Below the pieces are notes generated by a model. That model saw nothing but the letters and a program-made list of their open reading frames with translations. It made no database searches and was not told where the DNA came from. Both the position numbers and the translations under genes were made by a program. Shown piece by piece: positions 24,504 to 32,247 of a stretch of 32,247 nucleotides of DNA. Every line of letters begins with the position of its first letter. The first letter of the stretch is position 1. This DNA is from Clostridiales bacterium (GTDB taxonomy: Bacteria; Bacillota; Clostridia; Oscillospirales; Oscillospiraceae), in assembly GCA_012728025.1 (NCBI GenBank), contig JAAYFX010000202.1:1-32247 (forward strand), read 5' to 3'.

Positions 24504-25592
24504 TTACTGAAGATAGCTGGAACCGCTTAAGGATTGCCCCCCGTCAAGAAGTCCTGCCTGATTTTGCAGAACGGTGCCGTTAAAGTCAAGGTAGGTGAAA
24601 GAGTCAAGGCTGCTGTCTCTGCCGAAGAAAACAATTCGGCAGCGGCTTCTTATGGGCTTAAACTGGTTTATAAAAAACTCAAGACAGGTGCGCAGTCTCT
24701 CGTCTGCCTCTCGGTTTATGAGAATGGAAAAATCATAGGGGGAGCTGCCGTACATATTGGAGTCCTCCTGCTGTTTTGTAAGAAGGTTTCTCTCAACGAT
24801 GTAAAACGGCTCGTCGATAAAAAGCTTTATAACAAGCTCGATGGCGCTTTTTGTGCCCTTTGCCGCCAAAAGTTTTGGAGCGGCCTTCACAACACGGCGC
24901 AGACTGTCCTCATCTGTAAGGCTGCCCTCGGTTTCAATGCCCAGCCATGAGCAGAAAAGCCTTAAAGCGGGAACCGAGGCATAGTCTGGGTCAAGGTAAG
25001 AGGGAAGTTTATCAACAGTTTCCTGAAGTTCATAGTAAAGGCTTGAAAAGACTGACATATAGCGGCTGAAAAAGTCATTTTCCGCCCTGTATACAGCGGG
25101 GAAGGTTTTCGTAAAATTGTCCACTGGGTTGAAAACAGCAAGGTCGGAAATGCTGGCATTTTTGCCCCCTTCCAGACTAAGCCAAAGGTAAAGGTAGCGT
25201 CCGGAAATACCATTAAGCAAAACGTCTTTTGCTCCGTTTGCTTCAAGACCGCCGGCCATGGAGAAAAAGCGCTCTTTAATATCCGCCGTAATATCGGGGT
25301 CTAAAAGAAAATCGTCAATTTTTGTTAAGGTTCCGCTGCGGATAAAAACGGGGTCATCCGAGGCCATTGCCCGCAGGGTAAGGGCCATGTCGCCCTCTGA
25401 CTGAAGTTTAAAGGACAGCCTGCCCCAGTTAAGGCCATTTTCCGCCCCGTCCAGCCCGCCAAGGAAAATATGGCGGACGGAAACCCTGCCGGAGGCCACA
25501 AGGCTGCCCTCCTCCGTAAGGTCAAAGCCCCGCATCAGACTTCGTGAGAGACGGTTTTTCCCAAAGCTGTATTTTTTTATTATACCAGACAT
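24504..25592 (-). CDS. Phage tail protein I-like baseplate protein (P2 gpI/T4 gp7-like, Afp12-type domain)
   Basis: FPAVYRAENDFFSRYMSVF...LPSYLDPDYASVPALRLFCSWLGIE...AAKGTKSAIELVIKLF matches the Tail_P2_I pattern from memory. AAGGTGG RBS upstream. It is the last structural gene of the baseplate row. Confidence 0.7.
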   Translation of the reverse strand: MSGIIKKYSFGKNRLSRSLMRGFDLTEEGSLVASGRVSVRHIFLGGLDGAENGLNWGRLSFKLQSEGDMALTLRAMASDDPVFIRSGTLTKIDDFLLDPDITADIKERFFSMAGGLEANGAKDVLLNGISGRYLYLWLSLEGGKNASISDLAVFNPVDNFTKTFPAVYRAENDFFSRYMSVFSSLYYELQETVDKLPSYLDPDYASVPALRLFCSWLGIETEGSLTDEDSLRRVVKAAPKLLAAKGTKSAIELVIKLFIDEPFYIVERNLLTKQQEDSNMYGSSPYDFSILINREADERLRTCLEFFINQFKPIRSRCRIVFFGRDSSLDSFTYLDFNGTVLQNQAGLLDGGQSLSGSSYLQ

Positions 25593-25663
25593 AACACACC
25601 ACCTTAAAAGGAGCCGGCGCTAAAAAGGTTTCTTGCGGCATTTGTGGTTGCTGCAAGGCCTTT

Positions 25664-27790
25664 TTATCTGTTTTTTGAAACGAGATTTGAAAGTTCCAGA
25701 TTAATTTCCCCTGGATAGCAAAGGGCATTGTCGGCAAGCTTAAAGTCCGAGGACACCACTGTGAGGTTTTGCCTGTCCTCAGGCTTAAGCCGCAGAGAAT
25801 CCACCCGCAAAACACAGGGCAGGCGGCTTAAAGCACCATAAATTTCGCCGAAGCGAACCCAGCTTCCAAAGGGAACATCACTTGTTTCGTAATCTAAAAG
25901 GCTTTGAAGAAGATTTATAATCTCCTCTCTGGCCTTTTCAAAATGCGGCTTTACAAAGATTTTTGCGTCAAGGTCAATGCGGACATAACGGGGGGAAATA
26001 AGCTCGATTCTGGTGGTTAGCATACGTCGTTTTTCCATATGGGCGGAAAGCTGCCTTATATATAAAGGCGAAAGCTCCGGCCGCCGCTTATCAGTATAAG
26101 GCTTTACAACGAGCTTTACAAGGTTTTCCTTGGGGAAAACCACAGCTTTCACCTTATGTATGCACAGGCCTGAGGCGGATTTCGCCAAGGCTTCATAATC
26201 TGCCGCCGTAACAGCAGAGCCAGAGCCACGCATATCAGAGGTAAAGCGCAGGCGAAGCTGCTCTGCCGTTTCAAAACTTTGGCCGCCGAAACCATTGGAG
26301 GGCACAAAAAACTCTCTTATAGTTTCCGTTCCGTCATAGCCGCCCAAAAGCTGGAGAACAGCGCCGGAGCGCAGATTTCCCGCCTGACCATGAGTTGTAA
26401 CGCATTGAGCAAGAAAAAGGCTGCAAATTCCATCATAAGTAGGTCTGCGGATTAAAATTTTTCCCTCCTCGGATAAGACGGAATAGCAAATTTCGTCTTT
26501 GTCCTCACTGTCAGGGCGAACAAGGCGAAAACGGGGGGCTTCCCCCTCCTCGTGGGAGGGCAGCTGAACCAAAAGGGCAAGCTCCTGAGGCACCAAGCCG
26601 GAGACATGCTCCAGACTTATTTCCTGATTGTCATAGCCGTAAACAGGACCTAAAGCCCTGTGGTGAAGCATTTCATTATCATAACAGCAAATGAGGACAG
26701 AATCCTCACTGGCAAAGGGAGCAAAGCCGAAACGCTCCAAATCAAAGTTTATTTGCACCCCGTCTTCCAAAATCGAAAGGGTATAAAACCTGCCGCCGCC
26801 TCTGAACCTTTCCGGAGCCTCGGCATAGGGGAGATAGTCACCGCCTTGCTCCTCACGGCAGTATACAAAAATATTACCAAGGGCGGCAAGACTGCTGCAA
26901 AGGGAAACACTGTCATCACCGAAAAGGGAAAAAACAGCGGCGCTGGTAGTTTGCTGGAACATGGGAAAAAGATTTCCTGAAAGAGACTTAAGCCGAGGGG
27001 GTACGTCATATTCATGGGAAATAAGACGGCAGCGGATAGCAGGGCCGTAGACGTCGGTTTCGGGAAACAGGGCGGCAGGGGCGCTGCCAAAGCGCAGACG
27101 AATTTCCCCATCTGTGAGGAAACAGCAGGTACCATCGTAAAAGTCCATGTCTTGCCAGCCGTTCTCGGTGTAGTACTGCCAGCTTATTTCGGAAAACTTC
27201 GGGTCGGTTCCATCTCCTGAAAATGGAGCACGGTTTTCGTCCCCTGAAACCTGCGCCCAGAAAACAAGCTCGGACTCTGGCTTAGGCTCTGTGTCAAGGA
27301 TGCAATAAAGGGCGTTTTGCACATCAGGCTCGTCGCCGAAAATAGTGGCGGCAGAGGAACTTTTTGTGCTTACAAGCCTTGTAATCTCTCTGTAATCACC
27401 GGTTTTTCCAGTGTATACGGCCTTTAAAAACCATGGGTTTGTGCTTATGGCAGCCTTAGTTTCAAAGCTTAAAGAGCCAGCCTTGAGACGGTAGTGAGCC
27501 GGCAGGGAAAGGCTTTCACCTAGAGGATTTTGCACAAGAATGCAGGCAGGGCAGTTTTCCTTGGCGCTATATCCGGCAAGGGACAAAAGCCTGCGGCGAA
27601 TAGCGTCGCTTACTGTGGAAATGCTCTCTTGCTGAAGAACGTTAAAGGCCGTTAGGTTCTGGAGCATTGTTATACCTGGGTCAGAGACGTTAAAGTTCGT
27701 CCACTCATCCGTATAAAGGGGTATTTGCGCCAGAGCCTCGGCAAGAAGCTCCTCATAGCTTTTATCGTTTAGATTTATGCTGCTAAGCAT
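25664..27790 (-). CDS. Baseplate J/gp6-like protein (708 aa)
   Basis: The N-terminus SYEELLAEALAQIPLYTDEWTNFNVSDPGITMLQNLTAF...LLSLAGYSAKENCPA fits the Baseplate_J signature. GGGGAGG RBS upstream, with a 17-nt gap to the upstream gene. Confidence 0.75.
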   Translation of the reverse strand: MLSSINLNDKSYEELLAEALAQIPLYTDEWTNFNVSDPGITMLQNLTAFNVLQQESISTVSDAIRRRLLSLAGYSAKENCPACILVQNPLGESLSLPAHYRLKAGSLSFETKAAISTNPWFLKAVYTGKTGDYREITRLVSTKSSSAATIFGDEPDVQNALYCILDTEPKPESELVFWAQVSGDENRAPFSGDGTDPKFSEISWQYYTENGWQDMDFYDGTCCFLTDGEIRLRFGSAPAALFPETDVYGPAIRCRLISHEYDVPPRLKSLSGNLFPMFQQTTSAAVFSLFGDDSVSLCSSLAALGNIFVYCREEQGGDYLPYAEAPERFRGGGRFYTLSILEDGVQINFDLERFGFAPFASEDSVLICCYDNEMLHHRALGPVYGYDNQEISLEHVSGLVPQELALLVQLPSHEEGEAPRFRLVRPDSEDKDEICYSVLSEEGKILIRRPTYDGICSLFLAQCVTTHGQAGNLRSGAVLQLLGGYDGTETIREFFVPSNGFGGQSFETAEQLRLRFTSDMRGSGSAVTAADYEALAKSASGLCIHKVKAVVFPKENLVKLVVKPYTDKRRPELSPLYIRQLSAHMEKRRMLTTRIELISPRYVRIDLDAKIFVKPHFEKAREEIINLLQSLLDYETSDVPFGSWVRFGEIYGALSRLPCVLRVDSLRLKPEDRQNLTVVSSDFKLADNALCYPGEINLELSNLVSKNR

Positions 27791-31243: not shown

Positions 31244-31321
31244 ATTGGACTTCCTCCCTTATAAAAGAGGTGGTTTGCAAACTTCATATCAAAAAGCCTT
31301 GGACTATCTATGGCTTTATGT

Positions 31322-32143
31322 CTAGCCAATGGTGATAGGTGCACCGCCGATTTTAACAGCGCCGCTGCTTTCCGCCTTAAAGGCAGAGGTGGCCGACTGG
31401 GAGATGGTGCCCCCTTCAAGCTTTAACATACCGTCGGTTTTCATGGCAATTTGGTTGCCGGATTCCACAGCAAACTTGCCAGACTCTATTTTAACGGTTC
31501 CGCTGTCGCCGTTTAAAACAAGCTTCACCGAATCGCCCACCTGAATGCTCACTTTACTTTTGATTTTAATGGTGAGAGAGCCGGAGCCCTCCTCTGTTTT
31601 CATTTCAATGTAATCTTCGCCTTTTTTATCGGAAATGCGAATTTTTTTTGCCTCGTTATCCATAAGTATGGTGTGGGCCTTATCCGCCGTCTGGATGCAA
31701 ATTTTGTCTTTCAGCCCGTCTTTGTCATCGGGGGAGTCATCAAAGCTTATCATGCTGCCATGCTTTGTAACGATGCGCTTTGTGCGGTTGTTCTCATCTG
31801 TGGACTGGGTCAGAAACTTATCAGCATCTTTTGGAACACAGCCTATAACATAGGGCTTTTCTATGTTCCCGCCCTCGAAGGCCAAAAGAACTTGGTCGCC
31901 CACCTCAGGAAGAAAATAATGCCCCCATGATGAGCCGGAGGAGGGCATGGAAACCCTTGCCCATTGCAGCTCGTTTGCATCCTTATCCCTTGCGGGGATG
32001 GTGACGCAAATTCTTCCAGACATATCCTTGTCATAGTTTTTTGAAACAATGCCCAGCATGACTCCGGAAACTCTGGTGTCACCGGTTTCCGTTTTCGTCA
32101 CCTGACGTTCGCTTATCTCGTCTATAATATCGTAAAGAGCCAT
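31322..32143 (-). CDS. Baseplate spike, gpV/gp5/VgrG-like (Afp8-type)
   Basis: 273 aa. OB-fold motif GHYFLPEVGDQVLLAFEGGNIEKPYVIG. The C-terminal ~100 aa is repetitive and beta-helix-like (SLTIKIKSKVSIQVGDSVKLVLNGDSGTVKIESGKFAVESGNQIAMKTDGMLKLEGG). AAGGAGA RBS upstream. Confidence 0.8.
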   Translation of the reverse strand: MALYDIIDEISERQVTKTETGDTRVSGVMLGIVSKNYDKDMSGRICVTIPARDKDANELQWARVSMPSSGSSWGHYFLPEVGDQVLLAFEGGNIEKPYVIGCVPKDADKFLTQSTDENNRTKRIVTKHGSMISFDDSPDDKDGLKDKICIQTADKAHTILMDNEAKKIRISDKKGEDYIEMKTEEGSGSLTIKIKSKVSIQVGDSVKLVLNGDSGTVKIESGKFAVESGNQIAMKTDGMLKLEGGTISQSATSAFKAESSGAVKIGGAPITIG

Positions 32144-32247
32144 ATAGTTTCTCCTTTGGTCAAAAAGCCTGTGGGATAAAGGACAAAGGCTTACAAAAGC
32201 TTAGGTTTTCATTTTGTTGGCACAGCCGGAAAGCCTTGTGCGAAAGC

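Follow-up and report, generated by a model that had tools for sequence, protein, structure and literature searches.

The window, that is, the whole 32,247-nt stretch of DNA analysed here, ends at the end of its contig, and its right-hand part carries a run of minus-strand genes:

24504..25592, minus strand: CIS12 / P2 gpI-like wedge protein, 362 aa (Tail_P2_I, 1.8e-05)
25664..27790, minus strand: second J-like wedge protein, 708 aa (Baseplate_J, 1.6e-07)
27808..30837, minus strand: large J-like wedge protein (TIGR02243 / Cis11 / Afp11-like), 1009 aa (TIGR02243, 1.7e-26, under that model's cut-off)
30824..31243, minus strand: gp25/GPW sheath-initiator wedge protein, Afp9-like, 139 aa (GPW_gp25, 1.3e-16)
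31322..32143, minus strand: gpV / VgrG C-terminal-type central spike (gp5 OB-fold plus beta-helix), 273 aa (Phage_base_V, 6.8e-21)
32201..32247, minus strand: final 15 codons (3' end) of a gpD/YqbQ-like baseplate hub gene that runs off the contig (overlap with related contig L005)

The first five had been proposed in a preliminary description as baseplate genes of a contractile injection system (CIS), and all were found in the order and families given there, separated by gaps of 78, -14, 17 and 71 nt when the large J-like gene is assigned its 1009-aa start. This start is the second ATG (30837), the one called in the related locus L003; an alternative first ATG at 30861 yields 1017 aa (27808-30861). 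Profile searches with the five proteins and an associated ATPase, as that description had suggested, matched Pfam families in all but the 1017-aa protein, and the Phage_base_V, GPW_gp25, Baseplate_J and Tail_P2_I matches all exceed Pfam's cut-offs. The 1017-aa protein, with no Pfam match, was similar to Streptomyces Cis11 in PDB 9gtp (4.4e-15), to a 'putative baseplate assembly protein' of a Nostoc eCIS (4.6e-36) and to AlgoCIS 7aeb_G (0.02), and has homologues over its full length in every related locus. Further matches were obtained for the 708-aa protein (phrog_6, 2.6e-15; TIGR02243, 9.5e-31; 9gtp Cis11, 9.5e-19), the 362-aa protein (TIGR02242, over cut-off; CIS12_fam, 3.6e-21; 9gtp chain E, which is Cis12, 4.3e-05) and the gp25 protein (Afp9, 4.9e-14). 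The spike, described earlier as VgrG-type, aligned to positions ~373-600 of the tCIS All3320, AlgoCIS, Pvc8 and Afp8 spikes; the gp5/gpV C-terminal half of that assignment stands, and a separate gene upstream encodes the gp27-like half.

The partial hub at 32201-32247 is the sixth CIS gene of the window. The overlap between contig L005 and the window is 99.6% identical, and the 394-aa hub gene of L005, 70% identical to a Phage_GPD/YQBQ-like protein of L001, ends at 32201..32247. Although L005 covers only 1.76 kb past 32247, it shows the hub and a CIS_tube (tube-initiator) gene directly beyond that point. In syntenic relatives the region past 32247 encodes the gpD-like hub, two tube-initiators, tape-measure-like proteins, a chaperone, tube, sheath, a PAAR-like protein and a Pvc16 cap; the relatives carrying the sheath, tube and cap genes show 77-79% protein identity. 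The sheath, tube, tube-initiator and cap genes expected beyond 32247 were thereby located, the hub and tube-initiator in L005 and the others in relatives, so that, because the contig ends, sheath, tube and cap are known from relatives and not from this organism. Within 10 kb upstream of the related sheath in 80 species-representative genomes we found the Pvc16 cap, a PAAR-like DUF4280 protein and four conserved non-phage genes. At this 5' end relatives also encode, all in the same direction as cap and sheath, a transmembrane and MORN-like protein, a 1063-aa protein that has a hydrophobic segment at its N-terminus, and a protein with a signal peptide and a weak OEP/TolC-like match (1.1e-06). 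The OEP match is short and may reflect coiled-coil composition alone.

To the left of the baseplate genes lie an ATPase and two groups of signalling genes:

11053..12114, minus strand: membrane histidine kinase (HisKA and HATPase_c)
12332..13012, plus strand: OmpR-family response regulator (Response_reg and Trans_reg_C)
13025..15328, plus strand: Afp15/Pvc15-type AAA+ ATPase, 767 aa (AAA, 5.6e-27)
18537..20135, plus strand: MatE-like multi-pass membrane domain fused to an RsbW-like HATPase_c_2 domain, 532 aa (MatE, 4.3e-20)
21252..23438, plus strand: membrane sensor phosphatase, dCache + HAMP + PP2C (SpoIIE), 728 aa (SpoIIE, 3e-49)
23526..23948, plus strand: RsbW/SpoIIAB-like serine kinase, 140 aa (HATPase_c_2, 5.5e-24)
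24079..24378, minus strand: single-domain STAS protein, anti-sigma-factor-antagonist type, 99 aa (STAS, 1.2e-16)

The ATPase has a degenerate first P-loop domain and an intact C-terminal AAA domain (Walker A at 551, Walker B at 605), and is 34% identical to Afp15 over 320 aa (3e-55). ATPases of the Nostoc and Paraburkholderia eCIS loci match it beyond the AAA domain, at residues 295-765 and 99-759. Homologues of the ATPase and of the spike were found on shared contigs. The ATPase lies within ~10 kb of the CIS genes both in the window and in a 3.2 Mb relative, and near baseplate genes in five more distant loci (L091, L092, L095, L096 and L097); L088 has another arrangement, with the ATPase gene directly adjoining the CIS operon at its start. 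Since it is linked to the CIS in two arrangements and matches both Afp15 and eCIS-locus ATPases, we assign the ATPase to the CIS, in agreement with its earlier identification as an Afp15/Pvc15-type, CIS-linked enzyme. The response regulator gene is directly upstream and probably co-transcribed with it, a position kept in L087 (75% identical) and L088 (59%). The divergently oriented histidine kinase has hydrophobic segments near its N-terminus, and its homologues adjoin the ATPase in L087, L088, L091, L092, L094, L095 and L097.

The STAS gene occupies the slot of the usual eCIS tail fibres and is plausibly co-transcribed with the baseplate genes. In L001, L003 and each of the 13 informative distant metagenome loci it comes next after the I-like gene and shares its strand. 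Its product matches ant_ant_sig over cut-off, and homologues (51-96% identity) keep the phospho-serine motif Y-x-S-S-[A/T]-G-L-R. In the distant loci STAS is better conserved (51-62% identity) than the J (35-40%) and I (32-44%) proteins. The 140-aa kinase is kept beside the locus in L001, L003, L088 and 9 metagenome loci, and the phosphatase, which also matches dCache_1 (1.4e-23) and HAMP (5.8e-13) and has hydrophobic segments on either side of the Cache domain, is conserved in L001, L003, L088-L091, L099, L100 and L102. The fusion protein (HATPase_c_2, 2.1e-06) has ~10 hydrophobic segments and homologues in L087, L091 and L100. Comparative genomics places the histidine kinase, the OmpR-type regulator and the partner-switching set in the functional unit, giving an element of about 11053-32247 or more. 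The interval 24504-32247, delimited earlier as the module, does encode the baseplate; as the element reaches left to ~11053, it covers the structural end only.

Compared to the RsbU/V/W and SpoIIE/AA/AB systems of Bacillus, the STAS protein with a phosphorylatable serine, the HATPase_c_2 kinase and the PP2C phosphatase are all present. The locus departs from such systems in that its STAS gene stands last in a structural operon, its second kinase domain forms part of a protein with a MatE-like membrane domain, its phosphatase includes an extracytoplasmic dCache sensor, and a cognate sigma factor gene is absent: neither a sigma factor nor any other output partner of the STAS protein and kinase was found in the six regulatory arms inspected. 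In this lineage the CIS is always accompanied by a phosphorylation-based signalling module, and none of the searchable papers links such a module to phage-tail-like injection machines. Control of a phage-derived particle by a partner switch has a precedent in RbaV/W/Y, which influences the production of RcGTA, a gene transfer agent of phage origin (PMC3999984).

The core parts list is shared with Afp (Serratia entomophila pADAP) and PVC (Photorhabdus), with matches to Afp1/5 (tube), Afp2-4 (sheath), Afp7, Afp8, Afp9, Afp11 (weak) and Afp15; the Pvc16_N cap and toxin genes near the ATPase, both seen in relatives, extend the likeness. Unlike Afp/PVC, the locus has separate genes for a gpD-like hub and a gpV-like spike in place of one VgrG, carries its cap and PAAR-like genes at the 5' and not the 3' end, encodes an additional P2_I/CIS12-like wedge protein, and integrates a partner-switching module and a two-component system. 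The Afp13 fibre and lysis cassette were also not found, and the host is presumably monoderm. In the eCIS loci of Nostoc sp. UHCC 0926 plasmid pn3 and Paraburkholderia caribensis MBA4, three consecutive genes match the 1017-, 708- and 362-aa proteins with the order kept, and the ATPases are homologous; the Paraburkholderia locus additionally shares chaperone and DUF6760 genes. The Nostoc locus has features of its own, a fibre-like carboxypeptidase-regulatory-domain protein and a DUF4157 toxin marker, and homologues of the STAS protein, kinase and phosphatase were not detected within 18 kb of either ATPase. Headless phage-tail-like CIS of this kind are widespread in gut and digester Clostridia. 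Loci of related hosts of the same genus and family, Oscillibacter valericigenes Sjm18-20 and Anaerotignum lactatifermentans, are among the eCIS operons in the supplement of PMC8213781; none of these catalogued loci has been studied so far. Together, these results are best explained if 24504-32247 is, as we consider highly probable, the baseplate-encoding 3' end of an Afp/PVC-type (eCIS-superfamily) CIS locus of an Oscillospiraceae-like bacterium.

Afp15 and Pvc15 are needed for assembly and/or cargo loading, and the ATPase, as their equivalent, would serve the same purpose here. In the assembly suggested by homology, a trimeric gpD-like hub would carry the gpV-type spike, and gp25 together with six wedges, built from the 1009-aa and 708-aa J-like proteins and the 362-aa CIS12/gpI-like protein, would form the baseplate, from which a gp19-type tube and sheath would polymerise until a Pvc16-like cap closes the particle. 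The extracytoplasmic-sensing dCache-HAMP-PP2C phosphatase, the soluble and membrane-fused RsbW-like kinases and STAS would make up the partner-switching set, through which an external signal could determine whether the conserved STAS serine is phosphorylated and so gate production, assembly or firing of the particle.

We favour, though only weakly, a particle that acts on other cells, delivering its cargo either at the cell surface or once it has been released. Relatives encode ART (ADP-ribosyltransferase) and Ntox11 toxin-domain proteins beside the ATPase, which are likely particle cargo; in this window no recognisable toxin adjoins the ATPase, and a recognisable effector is lacking altogether. 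Scanning of the locus genes likewise revealed no tail-fibre or receptor-binding gene, which speaks against a free eCIS of the classical, fibre-binding kind. It is possible, if doubtful, that the same CIS acts inside its producer, cytoplasmic particles firing at the cell's own membrane to cause regulated death or lysis upon a stress or population signal, with the partner-switching module as trigger. The model for this is CISSc of S. coelicolor, a cytoplasmic, type IId eCIS (PDB 9gtp/9gtr; PMC12237407, PMC10066040), whose baseplate is the best solved-structure match for both J-like (Cis11) proteins and the I-like (Cis12) protein. As in CISSc, tail fibres were not found, the host is Gram-positive and presumably monoderm, and the fibre slot holds a non-fibre gene, which encodes the membrane protein CisA in Streptomyces (PMC12237407) and, in this locus, the soluble STAS protein. 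So large an outlay on signalling would be in keeping with a suicidal device, and the locus encodes conserved membrane proteins. The polymorphic-toxin-type cargo of relatives, however, fits killing of other cells better, and the conserved secreted and membrane proteins at the 5' end suggest an envelope-level function. The two systems also differ in their wedges, built in CISSc from one Cis12 and a single kind of Cis11 in two copies, whereas the window locus encodes two different J-like proteins, and in their spikes, that of CISSc being full-length VgrG-like and that of the window corresponding to the C-terminal half of a VgrG.

The 5'-end envelope proteins could instead dock the baseplate for outward firing, as in a membrane-anchored, T6SS-like apparatus of a monoderm. 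Their conservation in relatives and the absence of tail fibres are consistent with this, and phosphorylation control recalls the PpkA/PppA/Fha pathway that controls the Pseudomonas H1-T6SS. We nevertheless consider it unlikely, as these proteins are all outside the window, the OEP match is short, and TssB/C, TssJLM and ClpV were unmatched among the locus genes scanned against Pfam.

An R-type tailocin of the diffocin or pyocin R kind, killing related strains by membrane puncture and free of cargo, would also be headless and contractile, and this window itself lacks a recognisable toxin; diffocin producers are, like this host, Gram-positive anaerobes. Against this stand the eCIS-specific Afp16/Pvc16 cap and Afp15-type ATPase, the toxin genes that adjoin the ATPase in relatives, and the missing fibre gene and holin/lysin cassette, which make a tailocin very improbable. 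A myophage prophage, ordinary or defective, with these genes as its tail module, to which the phage baseplate family matches, the P2/Mu order of hub, V, W, J and I and the weak match of the hub to the PBSX-type YqbQ family might point, is largely refuted and scarcely credible, since Pfam scans of the window's other large ORFs revealed no capsid, portal, terminase, integrase, holin or lysin, as had been reported for the region to the left, and such genes are also missing from the 10 kb upstream of the sheath in the 80 relatives, while the Pvc16 cap, CIS_tube, DUF6760 and Afp15-type ATPase are present, the 708-aa protein has no close relative among sequenced phages (best match at most 27.5% identity over at most 31% of its length), and the sheath matches no more than 5 of the 2.9 million contigs in IMG/VR, the best of which is another CIS locus. 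A T6SS, also discounted in the preliminary description, was rejected, the sheath being of the Phage_sheath_1 type and the TssB/C, TssM and ClpV families unmatched among the scanned locus genes.

Four further genes lie in the left arm:

15369..15599, plus strand: conserved 76-aa hydrophilic protein just 3' of the ATPase (L087 homologue)
15683..16534, minus strand: GNAT-like 283-aa protein, paired with the 503-aa gene (weak GNAT matches)
16547..18058, minus strand: fast-evolving all-helical 503-aa protein (AF2 model and homologue search)
20189..21286, plus strand: conserved 365-aa protein, very weak GNAT similarity (Acetyltransf_1, E = 0.0099 only)

The 365-aa protein has homologues in L001/L087, L090, L091 and L100. 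Only 15 homologues were found for the 503-aa protein, which is 39% identical in a genome whose spike is 78% identical; its AF2 model (mean pLDDT 84.9, with a charged, partly low-confidence N-terminus) gave no fold match in the PDB (best E = 0.49). Its gene is syntenic in L087, as is that of the 283-aa protein (50% identical). The 76-aa protein is 51% identical to the product of a 78-aa gene at the same L087 position (E = 9e-25), and its gene is followed by a hairpin and T-run at ~15632-15680.

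The five closely spaced minus-strand genes named in the preliminary description as the spike and baseplate module of a contractile injection system (CIS) were all recovered, with family matches.

Spike and baseplate genes of the window
31322-32143, minus strand, spike, 273 aa (Pfam Phage_base_V, 6.8e-21)
30824-31243, minus strand, gp25 wedge protein, 139 aa (Pfam GPW_gp25, 1.3e-16)
27808-30861, minus strand, large J-like baseplate wedge protein, 1017 aa (1009 aa from the second ATG at 30837)
25664-27790, minus strand, second J-like baseplate wedge protein, 708 aa (Pfam Baseplate_J, 1.6e-07)
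24504-25592, minus strand, I-like protein, 362 aa (Pfam Tail_P2_I, 1.8e-05)

The four Pfam matches (spike, gp25, 708-aa, and 362-aa proteins) all exceeded the curated cut-offs, and PHROGs agreed with Pfam on the baseplate families. The intergenic gaps of 78, -14, 17, and 71 nt were reproduced with the 1009-aa form of the large J-like protein, and the second ATG is also the start called for its homologue in the related locus L003. The 1017-aa protein showed no Pfam match; it was J-like by TIGR02243 (1.7e-26, under the cut-off of the model), matched Streptomyces Cis11 in PDB 9gtp (4.4e-15), and over residues 401-1015 matched a "putative baseplate assembly protein" of a Nostoc extracellular, Afp/PVC-like CIS (eCIS; 4.6e-36). 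Its likeness to the 708-aa protein was limited to the C-terminal J-like region (25% over 190 aa). The best solved-structure matches of both J-like proteins and of the I-like protein were Cis11 and Cis12 of the Streptomyces coelicolor CIS, in which the wedge contains two Cis11 and one Cis12 (PMC12237407), whereas here the two J-like proteins are encoded by distinct genes. Two different J-like proteins are not a novelty of this lineage, given that three consecutive genes of the Nostoc eCIS locus match the 1017-, 708-, and 362-aa proteins. Tail_P2_I is already known as an eCIS "shell" domain (PMC8213781).

Assignment of the first gene to the gpV/VgrG-type spikes held for the family and required amendment for the extent of the protein. 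The 273-aa product aligned only to the C-terminal part (approximately residues 373-600) of VgrG-like spikes from tCIS, AlgoCIS, PVC, Afp, and T6SS, and a gpD-like protein encoded upstream of it matched, weakly, a more N-terminal part of Afp8. Because the two proteins align in this manner, VgrG is split here into gpD-like and gpV-like genes, as in P2 (gpD plus gpV), the 273-aa spike covering the C-terminal part only. An exact 11-mer, AGGCTTTTTGA, occurs on the minus strand at 31289-31299 and 32160-32170, both times between genes, once upstream of gp25 and once upstream of the spike. When a single mismatch is tolerated, 5 matches occur in the whole window compared to 1.9 expected, which is only suggestive, and the 11-mer might be a shared regulatory or processing element.

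Sheath, tube, tube-initiator, and cap genes had been predicted to lie beyond position 32247, and they were located at the corresponding positions, the hub and a CIS_tube gene directly in a near-identical contig and the others in syntenic relatives. The window itself appears to make up an entire contig of 32,247 bp. A second public contig, L005 (LFRM01140663.1), is 99.6% identical over window 29444-32247 and continues 1761 nt further. The gene for a gpD/YqbQ-like hub (394 aa) lies on it, ending with 15 codons that correspond to window 32201-32247, and is preceded by a CIS_tube-family gene. In L001, a locus of a 3.2 Mb genome with a spike 78% identical to that of the window, the run of genes leading up to the spike begins with a sheath (567 aa) and a gp19-type tube, continues with a tail assembly chaperone of 120 aa, DUF6760, and a tape-measure-like region (631-aa and 908-aa proteins), and ends with two CIS_tube proteins followed by the gpD-like hub. 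The sheath, gp19 tube, chaperone, DUF6760, and tape-measure-like genes were present across L001 and the relatives L007 (77% identity to the window in the spike and 79% in the ATPase) and L032. In the best 80 loci of the sheath scan described below, the sheath is preceded within 10 kb by a conserved series encoding a protein of 307 aa, a transmembrane protein of 404 aa (weakly MORN-like), a 679-aa product with a signal peptide and a weak OEP-like match, a 1063-aa product whose N-terminal part includes a hydrophobic segment, the Pvc16_N cap, a 272-aa protein, and a PAAR-like DUF4280 protein. The cap (Afp16/Pvc16; DUF4255/Pvc16_N) is an eCIS-specific core gene; it matched Pvc16_N at 7.1e-27 in L032 and had homologues in 72 of the loci retrieved, L007 included, all of this being seen in syntenic relatives as the window's own contig ends earlier.

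We judged eCIS membership by the operational definition of Geller et al. The core components in the window, namely the spike (Afp8), gp25 (Afp9), and the J-like baseplate proteins (Afp11/12), were all present. A tail fibre (Afp13) was not found 3′ of the baseplate genes, a position that a STAS gene occupies in 13 of 13 informative loci, and no fibre family was matched in the components scanned; since many catalogued eCIS are also without afp13 (PMC8213781), the missing fibre does not exclude membership. An R-type tailocin, that is, a headless phage-tail-like bacteriocin of the pyocin R or diffocin type, was rejected given the presence of the ATPase and cap, with fibre and lysis genes not found (no lysis cassette was seen in the window). 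The tail of a myophage prophage was rejected for lack of head or packaging genes and of close phage relatives. ORF scans of the window revealed no capsid, portal, terminase, integrase, holin, or lysin, in agreement with the initial impression that nothing phage-like lay to the left of the baseplate genes, and relatives, too, had no head genes within the 10 kb preceding the sheath. The 708-aa protein gave only weak partial matches in a phage database, and the sheath was matched by just 5 of 2.9 million IMG/VR contigs, the best being another CIS locus. A T6SS was rejected on its defining components, the sheath being of the Phage_sheath_1/1C type, the gp25 protein matching TssE but only under the cut-off, and no ORF scanned matching the TssB/C, TssM/J/L, or ClpV families. 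None of the findings that the preliminary description had listed against its own reading (capsid, terminase, or portal genes; TssB/C, TssM, or ClpV; no matches to baseplate families) was made, and wherever that description could be tested it was correct. The machine is of a known kind, here in a Clostridial lineage that is uncharacterised; what sets the element apart is its conserved regulatory architecture, together with a wide distribution in gut anaerobes.

The AAA+ ATPase at 13025..15328, described earlier as Afp15/Pvc15-type, was 34% identical to Afp15 over 320 aa (3e-55). In this 767-aa protein, the Walker A and Walker B motifs are intact in the C-terminal AAA domain and the first P-loop is degenerate; the only two plasmid matches of the region outside the AAA domain were ATPases within eCIS loci (Nostoc pn3 and Paraburkholderia caribensis). 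Homologues of the ATPase share contigs with homologues of the spike. In the 3.2 Mb genome, approximately 630 bp separate L001 from the ATPase region (L087), which is collinear with the window; in the related locus L088 the same block of histidine kinase, response regulator, and AAA genes adjoins the start of the CIS operon, not its end; and in five more distant loci the ATPase is at most approximately 10 kb from the baseplate genes. That the linkage survives rearrangement argues well for a functional connection of the ATPase to the CIS.

The region following the ATPase differs between relatives. In L087, the first ATPase is followed by a 78-aa gene, an 856-aa ADP-ribosyltransferase (ART), and a paralogous second AAA ATPase (34% identical), within the interval 12316-17558. 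Directly 3′ of the CIS ATPase in L097, a distant relative, (17118-20407) are a GGDEF diguanylate cyclase and a protein with an Ntox11 polymorphic-toxin domain (2e-41). The window, between the ATPase and a GNAT gene (15328-15683), keeps only a 76-aa gene (15369-15599), whose product is 51% identical to the 78-aa protein of L087, followed by a terminator-like hairpin; hence this locus has no recognisable toxin there. Compared to L087, a 77%-identical relative with a toxin and a second ATPase at this position, the gap appears to be either a slot for variable cargo or the site of a deletion in this strain. A 503-aa protein, conserved and fast-evolving, with a confident all-helical AF2 model (pLDDT 84.9), was also considered as a recognisable toxin or cargo and rejected, as its fold had no significant counterpart in the PDB (best E = 0.49) and its sequence matched nothing in Pfam, NCBIfam, or PHROG. 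A 707-aa gene with a highly charged product lies between the I-like gene and the following STAS gene in L096 (13237-15360) and L093 (8588-9319), and its product has a 72-aa segment in common with the ART toxin of L087 (43% identical). This protein was rejected as a tail fibre, being charged, without any Pfam, PDB, or fibre-family match, and sharing a segment with a toxin; the same features suggest that it is more likely cargo, and the 72-aa segment may be a common cargo-delivery domain.

To the left, the element is larger than the 24504-32247 originally assigned to it: the structural genes stood, and the STAS, signalling, and ATPase genes are now added. A STAS gene (24079-24378, minus strand) lies 3′ of the I-like gene on the same strand, and this arrangement was found in L001, L003, and all 13 metagenome loci that extend far enough, in which the J protein is only 31-40% identical to the window's. 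It follows the I-like gene directly in 12 of these 13 loci, the 707-aa gene intervening in L096; L093 has this 707-aa gene too and ends before the STAS position. The STAS protein is better conserved (51-62% identical) than the J and I proteins, and the SpoIIAA/RsbV-type phospho-serine motif Y-x-S-S-[A/T]-G-L-R is conserved throughout (SS[A/T]GL in 16 of 16 sequences). In Streptomyces type IId loci, a CisA-like membrane protein follows the baseplate genes, whereas here the STAS protein is soluble, with no hydrophobic segment. An RsbW-like kinase, a PP2C phosphatase, a MatE-kinase fusion, a 365-aa protein, a histidine kinase, and the ATPase recur nearby in variable order, so that the parts of an RsbV/RsbW/RsbU-type partner-switching module (STAS with a phosphorylatable serine, HATPase_c_2 kinase, and PP2C phosphatase) are all present. 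No sigma factor or other output partner was found in six of the regulatory regions beside the baseplate or ATPase genes (window, L087, L088, L089, L092, and L097), and between the I-like and STAS genes the matches to terminator and promoter consensus were no commoner than in shuffled sequence.

Several further genes accompany this module. The protein encoded at 18537-20135 (plus strand) is an unusual fusion, with a multi-pass membrane domain of MatE type and a kinase domain of RsbW type (HATPase_c_2), and is conserved in several related loci. In L089 (15099-19361, minus strand) a single-module NRPS (C-A-T-reductase, 1420 aa) lies between the RsbW-like kinase and the PP2C phosphatase, apparently with the same layout in L099, and in two distant loci an ABC-transporter ATPase gene is directly 3′ of STAS (L092 13663-14307 and L097 12233-12898).

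Gene content, order, conservation, and linkage are the established part of the mechanism proposed here. By homology to related machines, the hub, spike, wedges, tube, sheath, and cap would assemble in the usual manner, with the ATPase having a putative role in assembly or loading. The domain logic suggests that an external cue, acting through the dCache-HAMP-PP2C phosphatase and the kinases, would set the phosphorylation state of STAS, which together with the histidine kinase/response regulator pair would control production, assembly, or firing. Control is the least understood side of eCIS biology, and the invariable coupling to a two-component system and a STAS/kinase/PP2C module suggests a concrete mechanism of control, likely an on/off switch. 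SpoIIE and HATPase_c_2 were merely non-significant "cloud" domains in the global eCIS survey, and the searchable literature gave no paper linking a CIS to partner-switching proteins; the nearest precedent is RbaV/W/Y, which affects RcGTA production (PMC3999984). We consider it unlikely that STAS is a phospho-switch acting directly on the machine (baseplate or ATPase) instead of a transcription-level anti-anti-sigma factor, making the system, with the 5′ secreted and membrane proteins, a signal-gated, envelope-associated weapon. Under such direct gating, the ligand-sensing PP2C phosphatase and membrane-tethered kinases would set the switch, assembly or firing would be gated after translation, and the family would be a functional counterpart of the T6SS in monoderm gut Clostridia, which have none. 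A switch on the particle itself would, if true, be a new regulatory principle for phage-tail-like machines.

Interest in CIS concerns both their role as natural weapons and their engineering into programmable devices for protein delivery, and those characterised are almost all from Gram-negative bacteria, plus Streptomyces. The L001 sheath was used as query against one genome per GTDB species, and 590 related stretches were found, the best 80 of the 590 being 64-86% identical. Carriers were mostly Oscillospiraceae and Lachnospiraceae MAGs from animal guts and digesters. Sheath relatives at this identity were thus present in at least 80 species-representative genomes; in the main genomic survey, eCIS were reported as depleted from mammalian and avian microbiomes. 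If toxins of the ADP-ribosyltransferase or Ntox11 type were delivered between gut commensals or into host cells, this would be a new mechanism of interaction in the gut ecosystem. The isolates among the best 80 loci (Oscillibacter valericigenes An890, Pseudoflavonifractor phocaeensis An507, and Bengtsoniella intestinalis BP47G) are cultured carriers that make these questions directly testable. Geller et al. list eCIS operons of Oscillibacter valericigenes Sjm18-20 and Anaerotignum lactatifermentans (PMC8213781); the loci of these hosts are therefore catalogued and uncharacterised, the two operons being candidate members of the window's family, and no experimental work on a CIS from Oscillospiraceae or Lachnospiraceae came up in our literature search. 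Two loci carry labels from other groups, "uncultured Bacteroides sp." (L039) and "Moraxellaceae bacterium" (L077), with sheaths 65-68% identical to those of Clostridia; the labels probably reflect MAG mis-binning, horizontal transfer being the other possibility. In L087 the CIS supercluster is bounded by the histidine kinase, and fragmented phage-integrase-like genes (Phage_int_SAM_3; 4696-6179) approximately 2 kb from this kinase may indicate the edge of an island; the window has no equivalent of them.

The other genes of the window encode ethanolamine-utilisation and microcompartment proteins, cobalamin salvage, an ABC importer, DUF2804, and signalling proteins. A cobalamin riboswitch (RF00174, 47 bits, E = 6e-09) at 5112-5381 (plus strand), unrelated to the CIS, lies upstream of the CobU, histidine-phosphatase, and ABC importer genes. 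Two adjacent plus-strand ORFs (5509-6105 and 6102-6479) both match CobU, the first spanning nearly the whole profile and the second (125 aa) just its last 60 positions, and the pair could be a partial duplication or a remnant.
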